Below are positions 3,294 through 20,000 of a DNA stretch of 20,000 nt, one piece after another. The stretch is from a bacterium. Lineage in GTDB: Bacteria > CLD3 > SB21. Under the pieces are notes generated by a model, which had not been told where the DNA came from, did not search any database, and saw only the letters and a program-made list of their open reading frames with translations. Within the stretch, counting starts at the first letter, position 1. The number at the start of each line of letters is the position of its first letter. The translations under genes were made by a program, and so were the position numbers. The DNA lies in the NCBI GenBank assembly GCA_013360215.1, contig JABWCP010000014.1, positions 52,687-72,686 of the forward strand, written 5' to 3'.

Positions 3294-6200
3294 TTATTCA
3301 TTTTTATCATTGATCACGTCGTATATTAATTGACGAAATGCATCCACCTGAAACGGTTTGATGATATAACCTTTAAACCCATACGATTTGTGATCAGCCA
3401 TGATCGGATCGTTGGAATAGCCGCTTGAGACGACGGCGCGAACGTTCGGATCAATTTCTAAAAGCTTTTTTATTGTTTCTTTTCCGCCCATACCTCCGGG
3501 AATCGTGAGATCCATGATCACGACATCATACGGCACTCCGGCATCTCGTGCCGTCGTAAACGCGCGTATGGCATCTGTGCCATCAGTGACGGAATCCGTC
3601 TGGTAACCAAACTTACGCAGAATACGTGTGGTTATTTCCCGGATGTCTTCTTCGTCATCCATGACAAGTATTTTTCCGCTGCCCATTCCAAGTTCCTTTT
3701 GCGGGGCCGATTGTTGTTGCACTTGTTTTTCCGAAGCCGGCAGATACACCGTAAAAACAGAACCGACGCCAAGTTGTGATTCGACGGATATTGCGCCCTG
3801 ATGGTTCTTTACGATGGAATAACAAGTAGCCAAACCCAAGCCGCTACCGCGTTGTTTGGTTGTAAAATACGGATCGAAAATTTTAGACAAATATTCCGAC
3901 GCAATGCCGACACCTTGATCGGTAATTCCCATGCGAATATATTTTCCTGCCGCAAGATGCATGATCGCATTTTCATCTAAGTATACGTTTTCTGCTTTTA
4001 TATGTATAACTCCGCCGTCCGGCATCGCATGAACAGCGTTAATCACCAGATTCTGAATCACTTGACTGATCTGTCCCTCATCGATTTCGGCAGGCCATAA
4101 ATCATCCGGCATATCATACTCACACAACACATTGGATCCGCGCATCATAAAGTCCGCCGCTTCACGAATCAATTCACTGATGGTCAGCGTTTTCCTGACC
4201 GGCGATCCGCCTTTGGCAAACGTGAGTAATTGTTGCGTCAGTTCTTTGGCGCGAAATCCGGCTTTTTCAGAGCGGGATAATATATCATCAATTTTATCAT
4301 AGTGATGCTGCTGATGTTCCATACGCGCCAGTGAAATATTACCCAATATCGCTGTCAAAATATTATTAAAGTCGTGCGCAATACCACCGGCAAGTAATCC
4401 GACCGATTCCAGTTTGATAGATTTCAGGCGTTCTTCTTCTATTTTTTGTTTCTCTGTGATATCACGAAACACAAGTACCACACCGATGATCGTACTTTCT
4501 TTGTCACGGATGGGCGCACCGCTGTCGGCTATCAATCGTTCTGTGCCATCACGAGCGATCAACGCCGTATTTTGTTCCAGCTCAAAAATGCCGCCGCTTT
4601 GAATGATCCGACGCACCGGCTCCGCAATACGCACTTTGGTTTTGTAATTGATGATATGAAAAATATCCTCGATCGGTCTGTCTTGCGCTTCTTCTTGCGT
4701 CCATCCGGTCAATACTTCGGCAACACGATTGATCAAAACGATCCGTCCTTGCACATCCGTCGTGATCACGCCGTCACCGATCGAACGCAGTGTCACAGAT
4801 AACCGCTCTTTTTCGGCTTCGAGAGCGCGTTCGGTTTTTTTGCGATCCGTTATATCATAATATACACCCTGAATAGCCGGTGTGTCATTCCATAAAATTT
4901 CAGCTACCCGCACTTCTAAATCACGAATGCGACCGTCTTTGGTGATTACCTTTAGTTCATACAAATCCGATACGGGTAATCCTTGACGTCGCCGTTCCAT
5001 TCGCTCTTCGATCATAGGCTTATTCTCGGGTGCGATAATCTTGTATATCGAGAAATCCGGTTGTGATACGTCATGCGCTGTATAACCGAACAGTTTTTCC
5101 CACGCCGGATTGACAATTACGATTTTTTCGTTTTGCAAAACATACACCGGATTCAACGCTTGCTCGACCAATGTTTTATACTGAAGATCGCGTTGGCGAA
5201 GTATACTTTCTGCCGTCCGTAATTCGGTGATATCAGAAATAAATCCCTCGATGTATAAAAGTTTACCATCCGCATACACACCGGAACCGACTTCCGATAA
5301 CCACCGCCAACTTCCGTCGCGATGTTGGATACGATAAGTTAAACTAAACGAATGTTGATCCCGCACGGCGGTATGAACAATATGATTGATCATAGCCACA
5401 TCATCAGGATGATACATCGTGCTCAGGCTTATTCGCCTGTCATAAAAATCTTCCTTCGGATACCCCGTGATGTCCAAAATCGCTTCGCTGGTATAAATGA
5501 ACGTAAAATCAGCATCGTTTTCACACATGTACACGACCCCCGGAAGGTTTTCGGCAAGTAATCGGAATTTTTCTTCACTTTGCCTCAACACTTCTTCCGA
5601 TTTTTTACGTTCCGTAATGTCACGCGAATTAACCACGATGCCGCCGACAACCGCATCATGCAATAGGTTATGGGCCGTCACTTCCAATGTGCGCCATGAA
5701 TGATCTTTGTGTAAAAATCGAAAATGGACATTGACTATTTTTTGCCCTTGATGAATTCCGGTTTGGAAGGCTTCGCGAATTAAGGGACGGTCTTCCGGAT
5801 GGGCAAAATCTAACACGTTCTTACCGATAAGGTCGTTAGGCGTAAACCCGGTTATTTTTTCTACGGAAGGACTTTCGTACAAGATCGTACCATCAGCTGA
5901 AATAATACTGATAAGATCCAACGCATTCTCAATCAACGCGCGATAGTATTTTTCACGACGTTCCACGGCTTCCCGGCTTCGCACACGTTCAGTCACATCG
6001 CGCGAAAAAATGGAAGCGCCGCGAATAATCCCGTCGTCCGTGCGGATCGGAAAAAAAGAAATTTCATAATCACGCGACTCGCCGCCCAGATCATAGTGAT
6101 CCGATTCCATAAATACCTCGCCGCGAACGATGACGCGTTCATACCTTGCCTTCCATAAGGCCTTGAGATCGTCGGGTATACTGTCAATCACATTCATTCC

Positions 6201-8918
6201 GACTTCCAATCGAACCCCAAATGCCGCAAAATACGCATCGCGGAATGTCGAATTGATGGTGACAATCCTGTAGTCGGCGTCGATGGACCAAATGGAATCA
6301 TGCGAATTTTCAAGAATTGCCGCTAAATTGGCTTCATTATTCCTTAAATCCTCTTCAACCAAACGTCGTTCGGTTACATCTTTGCGTACGGCCCATACGC
6401 GTTTCCAGAAACCTTGCTCCACGACACCGGTATAACTATTGATGAAAAATCGTTTGGAACCATCTTCGGATATTTTTTCCGACTCGATATCGCTCGCTGA
6501 ATAACCGTTACGAATTAAGTGTGCAACCCACTCGCGCTGTGCCGTTTGTTCCGTAGCTTCATCGCGCCAAACTTTGTTCCCCGTAAGCTGATCCGGTGTA
6601 CGATAGCCTTCACTGAGCGCATACGTACTATTGCATTCACTGATAAAGGCCGTTTCAAAAAAAGATGCGATCTGATCTTCGACGGGTAGGTTCACGGCAA
6701 TCGGTTTTTCAAATTCAAATAAACAAATGCCATCGGAGCTGTTGGCCACAAATGCCCGATACCGCTCTTCACTTTGTTTGAGCGCTATTTCTGATTTTTT
6801 TAATTCTGTTATATCTTTTTGCGTCCCCCAAATACGCGTAAGTTTTCCGTCTTCGACAATACCTATGGCACTGTTCAAAAATATCTTCTGCGCGCCATAC
6901 TTATCCACTTCGTGCGATTCCTGATTGGCAAAATGATAACCCGATTTTACGAAGTCCACCATGTAGGCCACGTTATGCGGGTCATTTGGCAGAAGTAAGG
7001 TTTTGAGGGGTAAGCCAATTAACTCCTCTACCGAATTAAAGCCATACATCAGCGCTTGTACGGTATTGGCCTCGGCGATATAGCCTCCGGCAAATATACT
7101 AGCCACTTGCTCTTCCGGCATCCAATCAATCGGAACTGGTTCATCTAACTCAAGGCGATAAATACCCTCCGTACTTTGCTCAATGAAAGCGCGGTATTTT
7201 TGATCACTTTGGGTCAACGCTTCTTCAGAACGACGTACGTCGGAAATATCACGGCAAATAAACTGCAGGCACGGTTGATCGTCGTATTCTATTTTGGAAA
7301 TCACTGATGAATACCAGTGCATCTTTCCCCACCGATCAATAAAACGATTTTCTATGATGCCGGAATGGGTCCTCGCGCTTTGTGCAAATTCGTCAATAAG
7401 CGCATTGACTCTTCCAAAATCTTCCGGGTGAACAAAAGGGTTTTCATCGGGCGGAAAACGAAAGTCATTGAGTGTATAACCGGTTTGACGTTCCATCGCC
7501 GGATTGACATACAGCATATTGCGTTTGTAATCTGTGATAAAAAGTACATCATGGAACGACTCGACTAGTTTTCTGTAACGCTCTTCCCGCTCTTTGAGCA
7601 ACTGTTCAGCTTCCACACGTTCGGTAACATCGCGTGTCGTAATGAGAATTCCCTCAACGGATGCATCCAAAAGCAAATTGACACCGACGCTTTCACAGTG
7701 ACGCCACGTTCCGTTTTTATGTAAAAAACGGTACATAGCCGTAGCCGATTCGCCCGGCACACGAAGCAAGGATTCAAAAGTTTTTTGCAATACTTCAAGG
7801 TCTTCCGGATGAATCTGATCGAATGCATTGCGCCCAAGCAACTCGTCCTGCGTATAACCGAGCATCGGAAATATGGAGGGGCTCTCGTACCGGATCGTAC
7901 CGTCCGCTGCGACAATCGTGATCAGATCGCGTAGTTGGCGCACCAGCATCGTAAATCGTTCTTCACTGCGATGTAATGCGTCTAAGGCAAATTTTTGCCC
8001 GGTGATGTCGCTGACAACAAACTGAATGGCCGGTTTTTGAAGGTATTCGATTTTACTAAGTACGGACGAATGCCAGCGTAATCTTCCCCAACGATCCACA
8101 AAACGGTTTTCCAAAGTTTTAGAAAACATGGCTTCGCTTTGTATAAAATCCGCTATGAAACGATTGACGTTAGGCAAATCCTCCGGATAGATCAACGGAT
8201 GTTGATGTACGTTAAAATCATAATCTGTGGCCGTGTATCCCGTGTGTTTTTCGACAGCAGGGTTGATGTACAACACATTGCGATAGTAGTCCTCGATAAA
8301 TACCATGTCATCCGACGCTTCGAGTAAAGCGTGATACCGTATTTCGGCTTGGCGTCTTTCTTCCGCATGTTTTGAGCCGGTGATACAATCGGCTACAGCG
8401 TTGGCAAACTCTTCTTCGCGTCGGGCCCATCGGCGTGATCCTCCGACATGCTCATGGCACAAAACACCGATCACGCGGCCGTCCTGCCAGATCGGTACAT
8501 CCATCATCGCGCCGATCCCGTTGGGCAAAAGATAATCTTCCGTAAAAGCACTGGTGCGGGGATCTTTGTGAGCATTCTTCGCCAGTAATGACCGGCCGGA
8601 ATTCAATGCCTTAAAGTAAGGTTTATATTTAGAAGCTAAAAGTACGTCCCCTTTGAAATATTTTTTTTTCTCCCGACTGTAAAGTGCGACACATTGGATA
8701 GCCGATCGGTCCGGCGTGAATAACCAGACACTGACGCGATCAATAGATTGCAAGTCGGCGGATATACGTACGGCGGCACGCACCAAAGCGTCAAAACCTT
8801 TACGCAGACGATACAGATGCAGCAGGGCATCATGCTGTCGCGTGCTATCTAATTTTCGAAGAGTCTTTGGGGGACTCTTCTTTTTAGATGAAACTCGCTT
8901 TGGGGTTTTACGCGCCAT
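3294..8918 (-). CDS. cytoplasmic hybrid sensor histidine kinase: GAF + 10 PAS/PAC + HisKA + HATPase_c + receiver
   Basis: N-terminal GAF (RVSVWLF...GIGAMMDVPIWQDGRVIGVLCHEH). Ten PAS units end in D(I/V)(T/S)x motifs. H box GIAHDFNNILT, N box QVIQNLVINA, G boxes DQGVGI and GSGLGL, receiver ILVMDDE...VIMDLTIP...KPF. No transmembrane stretch. Confidence 0.95.
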   Translation of the reverse strand: MARKTPKRVSSKKKSPPKTLRKLDSTRQHDALLHLYRLRKGFDALVRAAVRISADLQSIDRVSVWLFTPDRSAIQCVALYSREKKKYFKGDVLLASKYKPYFKALNSGRSLLAKNAHKDPRTSAFTEDYLLPNGIGAMMDVPIWQDGRVIGVLCHEHVGGSRRWARREEEFANAVADCITGSKHAEERRQAEIRYHALLEASDDMVFIEDYYRNVLYINPAVEKHTGYTATDYDFNVHQHPLIYPEDLPNVNRFIADFIQSEAMFSKTLENRFVDRWGRLRWHSSVLSKIEYLQKPAIQFVVSDITGQKFALDALHRSEERFTMLVRQLRDLITIVAADGTIRYESPSIFPMLGYTQDELLGRNAFDQIHPEDLEVLQKTFESLLRVPGESATAMYRFLHKNGTWRHCESVGVNLLLDASVEGILITTRDVTERVEAEQLLKEREERYRKLVESFHDVLFITDYKRNMLYVNPAMERQTGYTLNDFRFPPDENPFVHPEDFGRVNALIDEFAQSARTHSGIIENRFIDRWGKMHWYSSVISKIEYDDQPCLQFICRDISDVRRSEEALTQSDQKYRAFIEQSTEGIYRLELDEPVPIDWMPEEQVASIFAGGYIAEANTVQALMYGFNSVEELIGLPLKTLLLPNDPHNVAYMVDFVKSGYHFANQESHEVDKYGAQKIFLNSAIGIVEDGKLTRIWGTQKDITELKKSEIALKQSEERYRAFVANSSDGICLFEFEKPIAVNLPVEDQIASFFETAFISECNSTYALSEGYRTPDQLTGNKVWRDEATEQTAQREWVAHLIRNGYSASDIESEKISEDGSKRFFINSYTGVVEQGFWKRVWAVRKDVTERRLVEEDLRNNEANLAAILENSHDSIWSIDADYRIVTINSTFRDAYFAAFGVRLEVGMNVIDSIPDDLKALWKARYERVIVRGEVFMESDHYDLGGESRDYEISFFPIRTDDGIIRGASIFSRDVTERVRSREAVERREKYYRALIENALDLISIISADGTILYESPSVEKITGFTPNDLIGKNVLDFAHPEDRPLIREAFQTGIHQGQKIVNVHFRFLHKDHSWRTLEVTAHNLLHDAVVGGIVVNSRDITERKKSEEVLRQSEEKFRLLAENLPGVVYMCENDADFTFIYTSEAILDITGYPKEDFYDRRISLSTMYHPDDVAMINHIVHTAVRDQHSFSLTYRIQHRDGSWRWLSEVGSGVYADGKLLYIEGFISDITELRTAESILRQRDLQYKTLVEQALNPVYVLQNEKIVIVNPAWEKLFGYTAHDVSQPDFSIYKIIAPENKPMIEERMERRRQGLPVSDLYELKVITKDGRIRDLEVRVAEILWNDTPAIQGVYYDITDRKKTERALEAEKERLSVTLRSIGDGVITTDVQGRIVLINRVAEVLTGWTQEEAQDRPIEDIFHIINYKTKVRIAEPVRRIIQSGGIFELEQNTALIARDGTERLIADSGAPIRDKESTIIGVVLVFRDITEKQKIEEERLKSIKLESVGLLAGGIAHDFNNILTAILGNISLARMEHQQHHYDKIDDILSRSEKAGFRAKELTQQLLTFAKGGSPVRKTLTISELIREAADFMMRGSNVLCEYDMPDDLWPAEIDEGQISQVIQNLVINAVHAMPDGGVIHIKAENVYLDENAIMHLAAGKYIRMGITDQGVGIASEYLSKIFDPYFTTKQRGSGLGLATCYSIVKNHQGAISVESQLGVGSVFTVYLPASEKQVQQQSAPQKELGMGSGKILVMDDEEDIREITTRILRKFGYQTDSVTDGTDAIRAFTTARDAGVPYDVVIMDLTIPGGMGGKETIKKLLEIDPNVRAVVSSGYSNDPIMADHKSYGFKGYIIKPFQVDAFRQLIYDVINDKNE

Positions 8919-10649: not shown

Positions 10650-11207
10650 TTACTTCTTAGCTGTCAATTTCTCATTGATTTTGCCGTACATCATAGCGGC
10701 TTCATCGGCCGTAGCGCGTGAAGCTTTGAAATCACCGGCGGCAAATTGTTTTTTGGCTTCTTCTAATTTAGCTTTGCAACCGGCATAGGTTGTTTCCACT
10801 TCTTTTTTGTCCGCCGCTTTGAGTTTGCCGGCCGCCGCCATCATGGCTTTTTCATTTTTCGTCCAGGTCGTTTCGCAGTTTTTGATGAAATCATCCGTGG
10901 ATGTTTTCACTTGTTCCATACCGGCCGGAGCTGCGGTAGCGGCTTCGTTATAGAGCTTTTCGGCTTCGACGTAAGCGGCTTTGGACTTATCCCATTCTTT
11001 CTTAGCCACAAGGCCATCGGCTTCTTTCATTTTAGCTTCGGCTTTTGCAAACGATTCGCTGGCATAATCAGCAGCTTTAGCTTCAGAGGCTTTTTTCGCG
11101 GCAGCTTTAGCTTTAGCAATTTCCTGCTCCGGGGGACCGCCGCAACCGATCAGTACAAATGCTGTCATAGCGACAGTCAACGCGGATACGATCATACGTT
11201 TTAACAT
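10650..11207 (-). CDS. Ala/Lys-rich alpha-helical lipoprotein (DUF4398-like), paralog 2
   Basis: Signal peptide II with lipobox LIG-C, a helical AADYASESFAKAEAKMKEA segment, GGAG RBS at 11214-11217, and C-terminal AKK. Confidence 0.85.
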   Translation of the reverse strand: MLKRMIVSALTVAMTAFVLIGCGGPPEQEIAKAKAAAKKASEAKAADYASESFAKAEAKMKEADGLVAKKEWDKSKAAYVEAEKLYNEAATAAPAGMEQVKTSTDDFIKNCETTWTKNEKAMMAAAGKLKAADKKEVETTYAGCKAKLEEAKKQFAAGDFKASRATADEAAMMYGKINEKLTAKK

Positions 11208-11297: not shown

Positions 11298-11861
11298 TTA
11301 CTTCTTAGCAGGCATTGCCATTTTCTTCATGGCATCCATTTTTTCGGTAGCCATAGCGAGGCTGGAAAGAGCACCCATCGGGTCGGTTTCCATCATGCCT
11401 TCAGCGCCTTTTACAGCACCTTCGACTTCTTTGCCCATAGCATCATATTTGTCTTTGTCGCCTTTTTTCATCAGTTTGGTAGCAGCCATCAGCATTTTGT
11501 CTTTGCCCATGTCTTCCCAAGCTTTTTTAGCGGCCGCAATACCGGCTTTGGCTTCTTCCATTTTAGCTTTCATTGCTTCAGGAGCGGCTTTAGCAGCAGC
11601 TTCAAACTGAGCGGCAGCTTCTGTATAAGCTTTCTTCGCACCGTCCCAATCGCTTTTCTTCACAGCTTCAGCACCTTTGTTCAAAGCGGCATTCGCTGCA
11701 TCAAACGCTTCTTTAGCATACACATCAGCTTTAGCTTCGGTAGCTTTTTTCATAGCAACCGTGGCTTTTTCGATCAATTCTTTCGGGGGACCGCCGCAAC
11801 CGATCAGAACGAATGCAGCGAGGGTCAGCGTCGCTACGGACAATACAACACGCTTCAGCAT
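11298..11861 (-). CDS. Ala/Lys/Met-rich alpha-helical lipoprotein (DUF4398-like), paralog 1
   Basis: MLKRVVLSVATLTLAAFVLIG-C lipobox, AAGGAG RBS at 11868-11873 supporting ATG 11861, a KADVYAKEAFDAANAAL segment, and C-terminal AKK. Confidence 0.85.
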   Translation of the reverse strand: MLKRVVLSVATLTLAAFVLIGCGGPPKELIEKATVAMKKATEAKADVYAKEAFDAANAALNKGAEAVKKSDWDGAKKAYTEAAAQFEAAAKAAPEAMKAKMEEAKAGIAAAKKAWEDMGKDKMLMAATKLMKKGDKDKYDAMGKEVEGAVKGAEGMMETDPMGALSSLAMATEKMDAMKKMAMPAKK

Positions 11862-12008: not shown

Positions 12009-12185
12009 GCTGTTTTTTGCTCTAAACTTCTTTATTTTCAGCATCATTTCCAATAATCACTTACCATTTTACGCATTCTTACATGCTTACACGACATCGG
12101 TTATGTAGGATACTGCGAAAATCGTATATCTCCATACCTGATCATATATAAGCCTGCTTTATCTAAGAGTTTGATTTCTGTTGGT

Positions 12186-12223
12186 AAAAAAACTCCCGGC
12201 ATCGTTTTTCGAACCGGGAGTTT
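12186..12223 (-). terminator. terminator-like hairpin with no obvious upstream gene on its strand
   Basis: AAACTCCCGG (12190-12199) / CCGGGAGTTT (12214-12223) 10-bp stem with an inner TCG-TTTTT-CGA. T7 tract on the minus strand, only T3 on the plus strand. Confidence 0.6.
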
Positions 12224-12245
12224 AAAAAATAATCGGAGATAGATT

Positions 12246-14117
12246 ATGGCCGTAGCTGCTCAGGGATTTCATCAAACACATTGTTTTACCGGTTCGTGGG
12301 ATGTACATTCAGGCATGAAAACAACCAAACTTTCCGGCCCTGTGATCGCCGATAACTATGATCAAGGTATCCGGCTCGCCATGCGCCTGATCGAAGCACG
12401 TGAAAATCTAGCCGATGGTTCGGGTATGGATATTACCGATTGGGCGCAGTCTGTTTTTGGAACGGAGCACCTTGTGCGACTGATCGAAACAGAACCTTTT
12501 TCGGAAAAAATATACGGCCCTGTTATTCGCGAAGAAATCGAACGGTTAGCTAAGACGTGGTACCCCGATGTAGGCAAACGTCATATCGTTTCTATCAACA
12601 AACTCGAAGATGAGTTTGACGTACATGTCGCCGATGACGAAGCGCCTGCATCAGCGCTTGCAACGGTATCGGCGGATCAGGTACTGGATTTTCTCAGCTC
12701 GCGTTTAACCCCGGCTCAACTGGAATACCTGCGCCGGATTCTTAAAAATTCTTTCGGCGAAGACCGCGACTTTTCGTGGAATGAACGTATTTTCCGGCTT
12801 TTGGCGGAATCGGAATCCTATCTTCAGTCTAACATAGATCGCATGATGGCGATGTATCCCGACGGGCCGCCATTGCAGGAGCATCTCCATGCAGGGCAAA
12901 CTTTTTCAGACGAACAAATCATCACGTGCTATAAAAATGTTTTTTTGGGCATCAACGCACGTTTCCCGATTCATTTTTTAGCTACGGACGGTAACCGAAG
13001 AGCCGCTATTTTGACGCAATTTGCCGTCGAACATATTTTGAAAACCCGACCGCTGGACGCACTGCAAGAATATACGGCGCGCGATTTCAGTGCGATCGGT
13101 TTGCGCAATGTGGCACGATTTTTCAATTATTCGCTGAATCGAATTATTCGCAATGCCTATCCTGATCTCGTCATGCCTTGGGAAATGGCGCATGTCGAAG
13201 ACGGATTTTGGACGGAAGAAAAAAACAGAACGATGGCCATTCGGTGGCTGATCGAAGAAAAACTCGGCATTGCCAAAACGGATATTCCTAAAGCTCTGCG
13301 GGATGATCGTGTAACCAAATCGTCCTTTACACAAAACGGATTGTCGTACATGTTTGTGCAGTATTACAAATCGGTTTCACGTTGTATCGGTGCGGCATAC
13401 CCTGAGTTTATGCCGTGGGAATTAGGCAGCGTACCGAATGCTTTCTGGCAAGGCGAAGAAGGACGACAAAACGTCGTGAAAGCGATACACTGGCTCATGC
13501 GGCGCATGCAAATCATACCGGCCGAAATACCCGAACGTATCAAAGATAAAACCATTAATCGCGAACTCTTCAGTCGGTTTGGCCTCGCCACGGTTTTCGA
13601 GCGCATTTTCAAAAAGAACATGTTTCAGGTTTTTGAAACCGCGTATCCCGGTCGTTTTGAAATATGGGAAATCGGCAAAGTGGCGACGGACTATTGGGAA
13701 GATCTGCTGCATGCCTATCGCGCATCGCTGTGGATTGCTAAAAAAGAAGGCATCCCCGAAAACGGTATTCACGCGGCTTTGCGCAGCGGCATGCTTTCAC
13801 GCGAATCCTTTGCTAAATACGGACTCGGCAGTATGCTCAAGCGTACTTTTGATAATAACCTGCGCAAGGCTTACTTGCCCTACATTTTGCCCGATGCCGA
13901 TACGCGTGAGCAGTTGATGAAAGATATTACCCTTCTTCAGCTCATCAAACGCCAGCTGCGGCTTTTTGATGAACAGCCTGTATTGATTCGTATCGTGCGA
14001 TATATGTTCTACCGATTTGCACAAAACTCCGTCGAGCGCACATACCGCCGAATATACGAGCGCCTGCGCAAACGCACGCAACGACGGCTGGATGAAATAT
14101 TGGCAATGATGGGGTAA
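12246..14117 (+). CDS. uncharacterised protein with about four tandem DUF4046-like repeats
   Basis: About 80-aa repeats with Fxxx(G)L...AYP(x)xxxWE...(F/Y)W...AIxWL (AYPDLVMPWE, AYPEFMPWE, AYPGRFEIWE, and a truncated fourth). They are preceded by IITCYKNVFLGINARFP, which resembles the DUF4046 N-terminal segment. Start is 12246 (GGAG at 12235-12238) or 12315. Confidence 0.75.
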   Translation: MAVAAQGFHQTHCFTGSWDVHSGMKTTKLSGPVIADNYDQGIRLAMRLIEARENLADGSGMDITDWAQSVFGTEHLVRLIETEPFSEKIYGPVIREEIERLAKTWYPDVGKRHIVSINKLEDEFDVHVADDEAPASALATVSADQVLDFLSSRLTPAQLEYLRRILKNSFGEDRDFSWNERIFRLLAESESYLQSNIDRMMAMYPDGPPLQEHLHAGQTFSDEQIITCYKNVFLGINARFPIHFLATDGNRRAAILTQFAVEHILKTRPLDALQEYTARDFSAIGLRNVARFFNYSLNRIIRNAYPDLVMPWEMAHVEDGFWTEEKNRTMAIRWLIEEKLGIAKTDIPKALRDDRVTKSSFTQNGLSYMFVQYYKSVSRCIGAAYPEFMPWELGSVPNAFWQGEEGRQNVVKAIHWLMRRMQIIPAEIPERIKDKTINRELFSRFGLATVFERIFKKNMFQVFETAYPGRFEIWEIGKVATDYWEDLLHAYRASLWIAKKEGIPENGIHAALRSGMLSRESFAKYGLGSMLKRTFDNNLRKAYLPYILPDADTREQLMKDITLLQLIKRQLRLFDEQPVLIRIVRYMFYRFAQNSVERTYRRIYERLRKRTQRRLDEILAMMG

Positions 14118-14147: not shown

Positions 14148-14181
14148 AATACAAAACCCGCCGTGAAGCGGGTTTTGTATT
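14148..14181. terminator. bidirectional intrinsic terminator
   Basis: AATACAAAACCCGC-cgtgaa-GCGGGTTTTGTATT, a 14-bp perfect stem between the repeat-protein stop and the stop of the receptor remnant. Confidence 0.9.
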
Positions 14182-16472: not shown

Positions 16473-19400
16473 TTAGTTTTGATCGAGCAGAGTACGAATC
16501 ACTTTGGATAAGGTATCAATCGAAAAGGGCTTTTCGATAATTGTAGACTTCAGATTCTGACGAATATCCCGCACCACATCCGGCGTCGCGTATCCGGTAG
16601 CAAAGAATATTTTTGCCATCGGATTGATCCCGCACAGAGCCGCATGTGTTTGTTTGCCGTCCATCTCCGGCATCTGTATATCGAGCATGACGACATCGGG
16701 TTTTTCCTGCTGATACAAACGCACCGCTTCCATTCCGCTTTGTGCCGTAATTACACGATACCCCAGTTCTTCCAGTATGCGCGAGCATATGTTCAGAATG
16801 GCTTTTTCATCATCCACGACAAGCACCGTTTCTTTACCCGTTTCCAAAGGTTTTTCAATCTCCGGCACGGGTGCCGACTCGTTACTTCGGGATGCAGGAA
16901 GATAAAATCTAAATTCGGCGCCTTCGCCTTTTTTGGAATCTACCATAATGGTTCCGCCATGATTGAGGATAATACTTTTTGCAACAGCCAAACCCAGGCC
17001 GGTGCCTTGGCCTTCCGGTTTGGTAGTATAAAATGCTTCGAAAATATTTTGCAATGTCCCTGCATCCATACCTACGCCCGAATCGCGGATAATGCATTCG
17101 ATATAGACGCCGGCGCCCGGCAGGTTGAGCAGTTCGGCCGATTCTCCGTCAAACTCTACCGAATGCGTACGTACATTGATCAGGCCGCCTGGCTCGCCCA
17201 TAGCGTCCCGCGCATTGACAAGAAGATTCATGATGACTTGTTGTATTTGCGTTTGATCCACATCCATCGCAGGAATACTGTCATCCAAACGTATATCAAA
17301 ACGCACTTGTTTGGGAAATGCATGCGTCACCATCGCTTGCGTTTCACGGATCAGATCATTGATATGAATACGCGTGATGCGCAGCGGGGTTTGCCGTGCA
17401 TAGACTAGCAATTGTTTGACTATTTCACCCGCTCGCCGCGCCGATGCAGCAATATTTTCGGCATACGTTTTTACCATTTCGGGCGACGCTGAAAAATTTT
17501 TGAGCATCTCGGCCGTCGGTAAAATTACGGCAAGCATATTATTCATATCGTGTGCTACACCGCCGGCTATACGGCCTACCGATTCCATCTTTTGCGCTTG
17601 AATAAGATTTTGTTCGAGCCGCCGCGATTCGGTAATATCTTCAACGGCTACTTCATAATAAAGGAAACGTCCTCCGGTGTCATACACCGCACGATCGTGC
17701 AAACGCACTTGTATAATGGCGCCGTCTTTTTTTCTCCAGAATACTTCCGCATATCGCCCAATGCCCTGGGCTCGCGTGTTTTCGTTGAATTGCAAACGAT
17801 CTTCAGCCCGCACATAAATATCACGATTGAGATTGAGCCGCATGACTTCGTCATGGGTCTTATAACCCAGCATCCGCACTAACGCCGGATTGATCGTGAT
17901 AAAATTTCCTTCTTCCGTGGCCTGATAAATACCTTCGGTTATGTTTTCAAAAATAGATCGGTATTTATTTTCTGACGCAATCAACGCCTGTTCCACTTTG
18001 CGCCGCTCCGTGACATCGTGAATGATCGAAAAAAGTAATTTGCGTTCGCCGATCACCACCGGACCCGTTCGTACTTCGACCTCTTTTATTTCCCCGTTTG
18101 CCAGACGATGCCGAAAATCAACATAGGTTTGCTGCGCTTCCATGGCCTGCGCTATGCGCTCTCTTACTTCTTTTTCAGGCAACACATTGATATCCCAAAC
18201 CCTTAGGCTTTTTAACTGATCGACCGTATACCCGTAAAATGCGGCAGCTGCAGGATTAGCATCCACGATACGCCCGCTTTCCGGTTCCACAAGCCATTTG
18301 ATGGCCGTATTGTTTTCAAACATTTGACGATACCGTATTTCACTATCAGAAATCATTTTCCGAGATTGCATACGTTCTGTCACATCGCGGGAAAATACGC
18401 TGACGCCGGTGATTATATGTTGTGCATCGCGCAGCGGATAAAAACTGATATCGTAATAATGGCTTATCCCAGCAAATTCAAACAGTTTTTCGATGACAAA
18501 CCGTTCTCCTTCCAGAGCACGCTGATAATAACTTCTCCACTCGTCGGCTGTCGCCTTTGGCAAATATTCCAAAATGGCCATGCCGGGTTGCAATACAACG
18601 CCGTAAGCTGATTCATACGCCACGCGAAAGGCCGAATTGAGAACCACTATGCGCAGATTCCGATCGACGGAATAAATCGAATCCGTCGTATTTTCGATGA
18701 CCCCCGACAGATTGTATTCGCTTTGGCGCAATGCTTCTTGTGCGAAACGTCGTTCCGTAATGTCGTGATAGTTGGTAACGATAGCCTGGACAAACGGTAC
18801 GTGAAACATATTGATCGCCGAAAACTCCACCCAACGAATACTGCCGTTTTTGTGACGAAGCGGGACCGATAGATGCACGCGCCGATTTTCTCTGCGACGA
18901 ACCGACTCAAAAATACGTTGGACCGTATCCGCGTCACTCTGAATAAAATCAAATGCGCTGCGGCCTGAAATTTCCCATGTTTCGTAGCCCAGTAACCGTT
19001 TGATCGAAGCGCTGGTATAGAGTATGGTGCCGCGCTGATCTACCAATGTAACAACATCGCTGCTGTTTTCGATCAAAGCGCGAAAACGTTGTTCGCTTTC
19101 ATAGAGTTGCTGCTCACGCCGCTTGCGATCGGAAATGTCGCGTACGATACCGAGCGCTCTTCCGTCATTCAATACTTTTGCGGAAATTTCCACATAAAAA
19201 AGAGTGCCGTTTTTTCTCTTAAATCGTTGCTCGCCCAGATACTTTCCCTCTTTTTGCATCAAGGCCAGCGTTGTATCCAGGGTATGCGCCGTATCGGGAT
19301 CGATCAGATCCAATGGCCCCATTGTAAGAAGTTCTTCACGGGAATAACCGGTCATCGCACACGCTTTTTGATTAACGGAGAGATAGCGCCGATCCGATCC

Positions 19401-19823
19401 CATGATAAATACGGCATCGGATGAAGACTCCAGCAACACATCATAATCCTGACTAATACGCTGAATGCGCCGTGCATCCGCCGCATGCCAACGCTGCATA
19501 AGCCAAGCCATAGCCAATACCGCAAACGTATTGACGATAATCCAAAAAACTATGGTCCAAAACTGTTCCGGAGCTTCATTGTACGGATGGCCAAAATCCA
19601 GCATGTAATACAGACGGTATAAAAATTGTAGTACGGCGCTCACCAAACCTGAACGCAGTCCTCCGAGCAGCACGGAAAAAAATATCAACGCCTGAAGAGC
19701 AATCGAACCGGGACGATAATTTTGTATCTGACCGGCGGCCAACTCTAAAATCACAATAGCCACCAATGTGGCGACCGGACCGATCGAACGACGGTAACGA
19801 AAAAGAAATTCTGTCAACTTCAT
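16473..19823 (-). CDS. membrane-anchored hybrid sensor histidine kinase: TM region + 5 PAS/PAC + HisKA + HATPase_c + receiver
   Basis: N-terminal 3-4 hydrophobic helices (LLGGLRSGLVSA, DUF4118-like), five PAS units, H box GVAHDMNNML, QVIMNLLVNARDA, DSGVGM, GTGLGL, and receiver VLVVDDE...MLDIQMP...KPF. Confidence 0.93.
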   Translation of the reverse strand: MKLTEFLFRYRRSIGPVATLVAIVILELAAGQIQNYRPGSIALQALIFFSVLLGGLRSGLVSAVLQFLYRLYYMLDFGHPYNEAPEQFWTIVFWIIVNTFAVLAMAWLMQRWHAADARRIQRISQDYDVLLESSSDAVFIMGSDRRYLSVNQKACAMTGYSREELLTMGPLDLIDPDTAHTLDTTLALMQKEGKYLGEQRFKRKNGTLFYVEISAKVLNDGRALGIVRDISDRKRREQQLYESEQRFRALIENSSDVVTLVDQRGTILYTSASIKRLLGYETWEISGRSAFDFIQSDADTVQRIFESVRRRENRRVHLSVPLRHKNGSIRWVEFSAINMFHVPFVQAIVTNYHDITERRFAQEALRQSEYNLSGVIENTTDSIYSVDRNLRIVVLNSAFRVAYESAYGVVLQPGMAILEYLPKATADEWRSYYQRALEGERFVIEKLFEFAGISHYYDISFYPLRDAQHIITGVSVFSRDVTERMQSRKMISDSEIRYRQMFENNTAIKWLVEPESGRIVDANPAAAAFYGYTVDQLKSLRVWDINVLPEKEVRERIAQAMEAQQTYVDFRHRLANGEIKEVEVRTGPVVIGERKLLFSIIHDVTERRKVEQALIASENKYRSIFENITEGIYQATEEGNFITINPALVRMLGYKTHDEVMRLNLNRDIYVRAEDRLQFNENTRAQGIGRYAEVFWRKKDGAIIQVRLHDRAVYDTGGRFLYYEVAVEDITESRRLEQNLIQAQKMESVGRIAGGVAHDMNNMLAVILPTAEMLKNFSASPEMVKTYAENIAASARRAGEIVKQLLVYARQTPLRITRIHINDLIRETQAMVTHAFPKQVRFDIRLDDSIPAMDVDQTQIQQVIMNLLVNARDAMGEPGGLINVRTHSVEFDGESAELLNLPGAGVYIECIIRDSGVGMDAGTLQNIFEAFYTTKPEGQGTGLGLAVAKSIILNHGGTIMVDSKKGEGAEFRFYLPASRSNESAPVPEIEKPLETGKETVLVVDDEKAILNICSRILEELGYRVITAQSGMEAVRLYQQEKPDVVMLDIQMPEMDGKQTHAALCGINPMAKIFFATGYATPDVVRDIRQNLKSTIIEKPFSIDTLSKVIRTLLDQN

Positions 19824-20000
19824 GAGAAACAAGAAAGGATTAAGATAATGGATAACATAACCAAACGATTAAGATTAAGCAACACCATCTTGCAATTCGC
19901 CTGGGAAACGGAAGCAACATCGTACCCCCCTTTGGATAGAAGGGAAAGAAGGATTGAGATTGGTGATAGAACATTGCAGGAAGTCTTGCGAGCGTAGCGA

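Follow-up and report, generated by a model that had tools for sequence, protein, structure and literature searches.

We analyzed a 20,000-nucleotide (nt) stretch of DNA, hereafter the window, from a bacterium of the GTDB lineage Bacteria; CLD3; SB21 (assembly GCA_013360215.1, contig JABWCP010000014.1, positions 52,687 to 72,686 of the forward strand). It contains a gene, P0001, whose product joins a module resembling sigma-70 factors to an array of DUF4046-type repeats. In window coordinates, with amino acid (aa) positions in brackets, the gene and its parts are:

12246..14117, plus strand: the sigma-like/DUF4046 gene P0001, a 623-aa open reading frame encoding a sigma-like module, a DUF4046 cap, four repeats and a basic hairpin; 80 homologs are aligned in its family
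12327..12566, plus strand: sigma2-like helical bundle (aa 28-107); predicted local distance difference test (pLDDT) values of the AlphaFold2 blocks mostly 88-98, one block 69
12438..12452, plus strand: region 2.2-like core-binding motif DWAQS (aa 65-69), D/E-L-x-Q-S in the family alignment
12498..12560, plus strand: helix resembling regions 2.3-2.4 (aa 85-105) but lacking the tryptophan pair found in primary sigmas, colinear with a profile of extracytoplasmic function (ECF) sigmas
12567..12671, plus strand: motif resembling region 3.2 (the sigma finger), then an acidic linker (aa 108-142); mean net charge in the family -4.4
12672..12752, plus strand: region 4.1-like helix pair (aa 143-169), with model helices at 143-151 and 156-169 and a match to a set of related fusions, group D
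12753..12866, plus strand: broken region 4.2, a loop (aa 170-179) and a long helix (aa 180-203) running into the repeat cap, with registers taken via group D
12867..12971, plus strand: DUF4046 N-terminal cap (aa 208-242), where relatives match PF13255 from model position 1
12972..13889, plus strand: four helical repeats of the DUF4046 type (about aa 243-310, 311-389, 390-472 and 473-548), delimited with a repeat hidden Markov model (HMM)
13890..14114, plus strand: basic C-terminal helical hairpin (aa 549-623) in the model, family mean net charge +9.2

An earlier note on this DNA had picked out three peptides as reminiscent of sigma regions 2.3-2.4, 3.2 and 4.1. All three lie in frame and in that order in the open reading frame 12246-14117 (plus strand):

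12498-12554, plus strand: FSEKIYGPVIREEIERLAK (aa 85-103)
12579-12641, plus strand: RHIVSINKLEDEFDVHVADDE (aa 112-132)
12681-12743, plus strand: VLDFLSSRLTPAQLEYLRRIL (aa 146-166)

They coincide with conserved features of the family, among them F85 (87%), Y161 (84%) and a finger-like S[LIF][DEN] motif found in 59 of the 78 members that cover aa 108-125. The regions had been named correctly, although the module begins upstream of the 12495 given for it, at about aa 28 (12327), and includes the region 2.2-like motif at aa 65-69.

Relatives were collected in two homolog searches, one word-indexed (64 proteins at E <=0.001 among 8000 scored) and one exhaustive (942 proteins, the best 150 of the 942 being listed), and 80 full-length or near-full-length relatives from both were aligned. 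Homologs with the same fusion, for which the note had suggested a search, occur in two phyla. The family gene occurs in 17 of the 20 genomes of the host phylum, one gene each (13/14, 3/3 and 0/2 in the phylum's families f1, f2 and f3); in one genome, G017, two matches are complementary pieces of the gene on two contigs. A second phylum, that of G020 and labelled Calditrichota, has it in 28 of 86 genomes, with one match each. Four repeats are present in 65 of the 80 aligned members; the architecture itself is conserved. The viral contigs we searched held no relatives, and when longer proteins were queried with the N-terminal alignment, eight came back, all family members; this search was weak and did not include standalone sigma-sized forms. 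One relative (G046:C300:2826-4586) has a TAG inside its family match, which none of the 27 others in that search has. Given two primary-type and 12 other sigma factors in the host, we regard P0001 as an accessory factor. The host's only two primary-type sigmas (L002 and L003) are short, at 281 and 285 aa.

The AlphaFold2 model has a mean pLDDT of 87.7 overall and 81.4 over aa 24-210. It begins with a helical bundle (28-107), followed by the motif and acidic linker (108-142), helices (143-169), a loop and a long helix (180-203). In E. coli, core binding by region 2.2 involves D403, Q406, E407 and N409, and the aromatic residues that melt promoter DNA sit in region 2.3 (bioRxiv 10.1101/2020.09.07.285775). 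The P0001 family has [DE][LIVW]xQ at the region 2.2-like position in 57 of 77 members, with S or T after the Q in 68 of 77, in a register inferred from an end-to-end alignment with the ECF profile. In the same alignment the finger-like motif comes directly after helix 2.4, within about 10 residues. Column conservation is high at Y90 (84%) and L154 (75%) as well as at F85 and Y161. P0001 has neither the sigma3 domain nor the region 2.3-2.4 tryptophan pair of primary-type (group 1/2) sigmas.

Region 4.2, the reader of the -35 element, is broken, and its conserved helix-turn-helix (HTH) has been lost; the earlier note had likewise seen no clear HTH here. Residues 170-179 are the least conserved non-linker stretch of the family (0.28) and form a low-confidence loop in the model at the place of the first HTH helix, and conservation across the loop and the long helix is 0.28 and 0.44. 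When the family-to-group-D and group-D-to-sigma registers are combined, the first HTH helix falls on the variable loop 170-177 and the old recognition helix on aa 182-203, where its DNA-reading positions are largely hydrophobic. What was once the recognition helix of region 4.2 is thus probably now the long helix at aa 182-203. An intact HTH at aa 180-195, suggested by eye, was rejected, as the pattern occurs in part of the family only (W178 49%, S189 45%). The region 4.2 stretch of Calditrichota-type members is unlike that of the rest of the family.

Group D consists of five proteins (P0122, P0170, P0181, P0193 and P0207) of 450-470 aa that resemble sigma regions 3-4 without sigma2 and continue into three repeats; a search for a contig carrying P0170 found none. 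Family residues 139-206 match group D with hhalign (95.5%, E 1.4e-8). Group D in turn aligns with regions 3.2-4.2 of primary-type sigmas at a score of 29.7 and E 1.3e-3, compared with 15.5 for the reversed profile and at most 22.2 for 30 shuffles; with four group D members, the sigma match extended back into region 3.0. Group D thus forms a weak sequence bridge from aa 139-206 of the family to sigma regions 3.2-4.

For direct comparison we assembled 74 sigmas, 60 of ECF size and 14 of the primary type (79 of 87 loci were recovered, and five longer sigmas were left out). Aligned end to end with the ECF profile, aa 28-207 scored 34.0, compared with 16.4 for the reversed profile; none of 26 C-terminal windows exceeded 23.2, and none of 40 block shuffles exceeded 30.1. 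This alignment pairs D-L-x-Q with region 2.2, the F..Y helix with regions 2.3-2.4 and aa 146-166 with region 4.1. When the aa 28-207 profile was scored end to end against 1377 proteins, 74 of them sigmas, sigmas took 19 of the top 20 places. The profile of aa 108-207 placed 16 sigmas in the top 20 of the 1377 (reversed, 4; three block shuffles, 2-5; five C-terminal windows, 0-5), an enrichment that composition explains in part, since the controls favor sigmas as well.

The predicted fold points weakly in the same direction. In a Foldseek search with the N-terminal model, titles identify 40 of the 49 listed PDB rows, and all of the first 16, as sigma chains, at E 0.37-2.6 and mostly over 200-260 columns, and 7 of 50 rows from the viral library were named sigma. 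About 20 of 50 rows in the VIA non-redundant search were sigma2 domains, counted from titles (Z 5.1-6.4), and aa 28-107 superimposed on domain 2 of FliA with Z 7.3 (root-mean-square deviation [rmsd] 2.3, 72 residues aligned). When aa 28-118 were folded together with the 344-aa clamp of the host RNA polymerase beta-prime subunit, the complex scored 0.60 and the best of three controls 0.18; at least 73% of contacts were shared between runs, and partner pLDDT was at least 74. In calibration, 116 of 157 solved pairs and 2 of 215 mismatched ones attained the mark for this test; 18 of the 157 and both mismatches did so with scores of 0.60 or below. The pass is weak evidence: because a similar complex is already solved, it shows likeness to sigma2 rather than binding by P0001, and the prediction may go back to solved sigma complexes. 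The lines of evidence partly overlap, as Foldseek, VIA and the docking all use predicted structure and both end-to-end tests use one profile.

A set of results weighs against reading this module as a sigma factor. Neither P0001, its residues 1-210 nor 40 family members gave a sigma match in Pfam or NCBIfam (Sigma70_r2, Sigma70_r4, TIGR02937), and local hhalign against the sigma profiles stayed below 3% probability. PHROGs likewise returned no sigma match for P0001, PDB sequence searches with two family alignments gave chance rows only, and ESM Atlas gave no usable match for aa 28-207. Local HMM ranks in the host proteome were rejected as non-specific, as the repeat profile enriched sigmas too; global-mode hhalign was dropped for its short end-overlap alignments. 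The controls for aa 28-207 also enrich sigmas (10/20 for the reversed profile, 7-10/20 for three shuffles and 1-6/20 for five C-terminal windows), and the sigma2 part alone, aa 28-112, did not beat its controls (6/20, compared with 6-10 for shuffles and 0-8 for C-terminal windows). The end-to-end scoring is home-made, and its windows were picked after the fold had been seen. No fold match reached E 0.001 or Z 8, and a Z below 8 may reflect a common helical arrangement; unrelated bundles tie with sigma for first place (DXR, Z 7.4; Sld7, Z 6.9-7.0), all sigma2 rows of the VIA non-redundant search rank below Sld7, and the PDB is redundant for sigmas. Within the module, an acidic residue after the region 2.2 Q, at the position of E407, occurs in 0 of 77 members, and a tryptophan in aa 84-104 in 4 of 77, so that the melting tryptophans are nearly absent. 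Finally, the related loci show no conserved upstream motif or neighbor that would point to a regulon.

We nevertheless consider a sigma-70 ancestry of the N-terminal part highly probable. The earlier note's proposal of a sigma-derived module is supported by weak tests that converge, namely the fold searches, the end-to-end profiles and the bridging group; none of them is significant by itself, and the standard searches by sequence are negative. Because the HMM and intact-HTH tests failed, we call the family sigma-derived and do not place it in a sigma group. Its predicted binding to RNA polymerase gains weak support from the clamp docking, and we think it likely that the sigma2-like bundle still binds the core enzyme, on the beta-prime clamp helices.

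The repeats are the most conserved part of the family (0.49-0.57). In P0001 they are 68-82 aa long and match the repeat HMM at E 1e-4, 1e-15, 3e-19 and 1e-9. PF13255 (DUF4046) was matched in 22 of 40 family members at E up to 1, with a best value of 9e-12, and is precomputed for all 64 proteins of the word-indexed search; P0001 alone gave no PF13255 match, falling under the Pfam reporting limit. By sequence, the family repeats belong to DUF4046. The nearest ESM Atlas clusters of P0001 are also DUF4046 (score 0.79), which is a lead only. Fold searches with full-length P0001, made with the whole model and not with single repeats, returned generic solenoids and matches to the C-terminal hairpin only. 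In the fold rows dominated by sigma2, there was no sigma4 match.

Each repeat is net basic (+1.9 to +4.4). Elsewhere the DUF4046 repeat is fused to HTH arrays (P0063, P0128 and P0179) and to a D5-like regulator domain (P0127, E 1.6e-28), and it occurs with a weak Ros/MucR match (E 0.0024). Charge and fusions together suggest that the repeats bind nucleic acid. Six DUF4046 proteins (P0105, P0108, P0127, P0136, P0140 and P0157) end, by eye, in PD-(D/E)XK nuclease-like tails, for which Pfam gave Mrr_cat at E 0.13 in P0140 only. In the C-terminal hairpin, R606 (94%) and R610 (96%) are near-invariant in the family. The turn between its basic helices (aa 580-592, about 13983-14021) is hydrophobic and aromatic, with the consensus L-L-Y-G-F-F; it is too short for a membrane span and is perhaps an amphipathic or dimer surface. 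A transmembrane anchor was rejected, since a 19-residue window exceeds 1.6 in only 1 of the 80 members.

Sigma-like and DUF4046 segments also occur together in a further set of proteins. In group B (P0119, P0083 and P0080), Pfam recognizes Sigma70_r2 at E 5e-11, 9e-4 and 0.018, and the NCBIfam scan finds sigma2 as well; sigma2, a 4.1-like helix and repeats follow one another in this order, with an S[LT]LD-like finger motif between them in two of the three. The group B proteins are giants in which one or two sigma2-to-4.1 modules lie among 9-13 DUF4046 repeats, and P0119 and P0080 appear to have two. Sigma modules thus appear to have been joined to DUF4046 in at least three layouts: sigma2-3.2-4 in the P0001 family, sigma3-4 in group D, and sigma2-3.2-4.1 units among the repeats in group B. 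Cross-matches are weak (family with group B, E 0.021; group D with group B, E 0.057; group D with ECF, E 0.09), and they do not show a common origin of the three fusions.

Our favored reading, which we hold tentatively, is that P0001 is a noncanonical sigma-70-family factor that docks on core RNA polymerase and is aimed by its repeats. An ECF-like layout of sigma2, finger/linker and sigma4 would have been fused to DUF4046 repeats and then eroded. The sigma2-like bundle would dock on the beta-prime clamp helices of the host polymerase, the finger would enter the active-site channel, and the 4.1 remnant would hold the beta flap. The former recognition helix might serve as a rigid stalk carrying the repeats, so that four basic, tryptophan-rich repeats and the arginine-rich hairpin could replace the -35 HTH in binding DNA upstream. 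Start sites of the polymerase would then be set by the repeats, and the worn sigma2 would open DNA with little -10 specificity, as in dCas12f-sigmaE. The targeting of promoters by the repeats is a suggestion, drawn from their positive charge and their fusion partners, that we put forward with less than even confidence. We think it unlikely that the promoter address is read in modular fashion by the protein-repeat array, with a few base pairs (bp) per repeat and no -35 box.

Alternatively, P0001 might be a working ECF-like sigma whose repeats extend it for sensing or for binding other proteins, comparable to the tails of ECF42 (TPR) and ECF41 (SnoaL). Promoters would then be recognized by sigma2, with or without a partner, and the repeats would switch the sigma on or off. 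Such a role would suit the many DUF4046 proteins that consist of repeats only and the absence of a conserved anti-sigma-like neighbor in the 28 related loci and the window. We consider it improbable all the same. ECF41 and ECF42 factors are taken to keep an intact sigma4 HTH, whereas the P0001 family has lost the 4.2 HTH. Its repeats are also net basic and are fused to DNA-binding domains elsewhere.

The protein could instead be a sigma mimic, which binds the core enzyme without being able to open promoters and, by competing for core or by holding polymerase at repeat-bound sites, represses or pauses transcription. The retained core-binding D/E..Q (57/77), the scarcity of melting tryptophans (4/77) and the lost HTH would all be expected of such a protein; the clamp docking (0.60 against 0.18) agrees weakly, and a host with two primary-type and 12 other sigmas does not depend on P0001. 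The finger-like motif is well conserved (0.54), however, and a pure blocker would need a finger less; moreover, a sigma can open DNA without the usual pocket, as does the sigmaE of dCas12f (bioRxiv 10.1101/2025.06.10.658880). We judge a mimic to have perhaps the same small chance as a regulatory extension. That the N-terminal part does not bind RNA polymerase is also doubtful, and its two versions, a repurposed sigma relic and an unrelated bundle resembling sigma2 by chance, are each quite improbable: all library and local-profile tests are negative, Z values below 8 are common among helical bundles, unrelated proteins tie with sigma, and both passing mismatches of the complex test scored 0.60 or below. 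Against both versions, sigma matches in two fold libraries, four regions in colinear order, the bridging group and the parallel fusions of sigma with the DUF4046 repeat all agree with one another.

The gene is flanked by two further elements:

12190..12223, no strand assigned: hairpin upstream of P0001, directly before the ribosome-binding site (predicted fold)
14150..14179, plus strand: perfect 12-bp inverted repeat 3' of the P0001 stop codon (z -6.15)

A GGAG ribosome-binding site lies 9-12 nt 5' of the ATG. Folding of 12159-12248 gave z -3.97, a value equaled by none of 200 shuffles. The inverted repeat is probably an intrinsic terminator, and P0001 is therefore probably transcribed alone; the repeat was not among the terminators from a pattern scan, and a promoter scan gave chance level only. 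Contigs from RNA libraries (four runs, three studies) match parts of P0001 at >=99%, mostly at 12198-12715, a weak sign of transcription; strand and level are not given, the libraries may contain DNA, and the lack of coverage over much of P0001 shows nothing.

In the predicted fold of four relatives, an upstream pyrimidine tract pairs with the ribosome-binding site (L034:245-334, z -3.1; L038:5863-5952, z -4.1; L039:5866-5955, z -1.5; L041:5881-5970, z -0.7). The tract is common to four of nine aligned upstream regions, and these four were chosen by eye. The hairpin at 12190-12245 of the window differs from this fold and is strong (z -4.0). Translational control by such predicted upstream folds is possible in the P0001 family. 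No upstream DNA motif was common beyond close kin among the aligned upstream regions.

The neighbors of P0001 are ordinary or unrelated. Upstream, on the opposite strand, lie two lipoprotein-like genes; downstream there is, by Pfam, an AI-2E transporter. The lipoprotein-like genes (10650-11207 and 11298-11861, minus strand) are a tandem of similar Ala/Lys-rich sequences that share ...FVLIGCGGPP; each has a similar stem after it, on the minus strand, and RNA-library contigs from three of the four runs cover both. Pfam gave no convincing match for either. At 3294-8918 and 16473-19832 (minus strand) the window holds, by eye, large multi-PAS hybrid histidine kinases of 1874 and 1119 aa, which are ordinary. 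Across the 28 related loci and the window, no neighbor gene is common to the lineages, and the largest neighbor group specific to the family spans seven loci. A gene of 180-190 aa, DinB-like by eye, lies downstream in seven Calditrichota-type loci (L047, L050-L053, L056 and L058), and four closer relatives (L033, L035, L036 and L043) have a 184-aa gene and an ABC ATPase downstream.

The earlier note had suggested an undescribed class of transcription factor. We found no paper naming DUF4046 or PF13255 in a search of articles without their supplements; sigma-I and dCas12f-sigmaE already pair sigma2 with a substitute for sigma4, so the principle would not be new. Typical DUF4046 proteins consist of repeats only, to which the P0001 family adds a sigma-like front and a basic hairpin. 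If our reading is correct, P0001 represents a sigma-70 variant that every standard annotation misses and that is retained as one copy per genome in most of one little-studied phylum and in a third of the genomes sampled from another, and DUF4046 would gain its first function. If the promoter were addressed by the repeats, swapping repeats would move the start site, and initiation would proceed without a -35 box.

Among known systems, the ECF factors, defined by a sigma2-linker-sigma4 core (PMC7826278), are the closest in layout. Several carry C-terminal extensions, including SnoaL in ECF41, TPR in ECF42 and a WD40-like domain in ECF57 (PMC7826278; PMC8999054). Like ECF (group 4) sigmas, the P0001 family has sigma2-linker-sigma4 spacing without sigma3 and a long C-terminal extension, and it resembles the extended ECFs in having no conserved anti-sigma neighbor. 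It differs from them in falling below all sigma HMM cut-offs and in its broken 4.2 HTH. DUF4046 is not among the extension types described in the parts of these papers that we drew on, and their supplements could mention it (PMC7826278; PMC8999054).

In sigma-I of Bacilli and Clostridia, sigma2 sits on the beta-prime coiled coil and a C-terminal part other than sigma4 reads the -35 element; this part, SigIC, is a single HTH domain without sigma4 homology, and the factor is paired with the anti-sigma RsgI (PMC10575876). By this description the P0001 family is unlike SigI, as it keeps a sigma4.1 remnant followed by four repeats, and the NCBIfam scan of P0001 gave no match to a SigI model. In dCas12f-sigmaE, -35 recognition is largely supplanted and the -10 element is held without the usual pocket (bioRxiv 10.1101/2025.06.10.658880). 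Chain 9n9q_C of this system is among the VIA fold matches (Z 5.2, rmsd 4.1, 75 aligned). The targeting module there is a separate RNA-guided protein, whereas P0001, near which we saw no Cas gene or guide RNA, would use a fused repeat array. If so, the P0001 family would provide a third natural replacement of sigma4 in promoter choice, after sigma-I and dCas12f-sigmaE.

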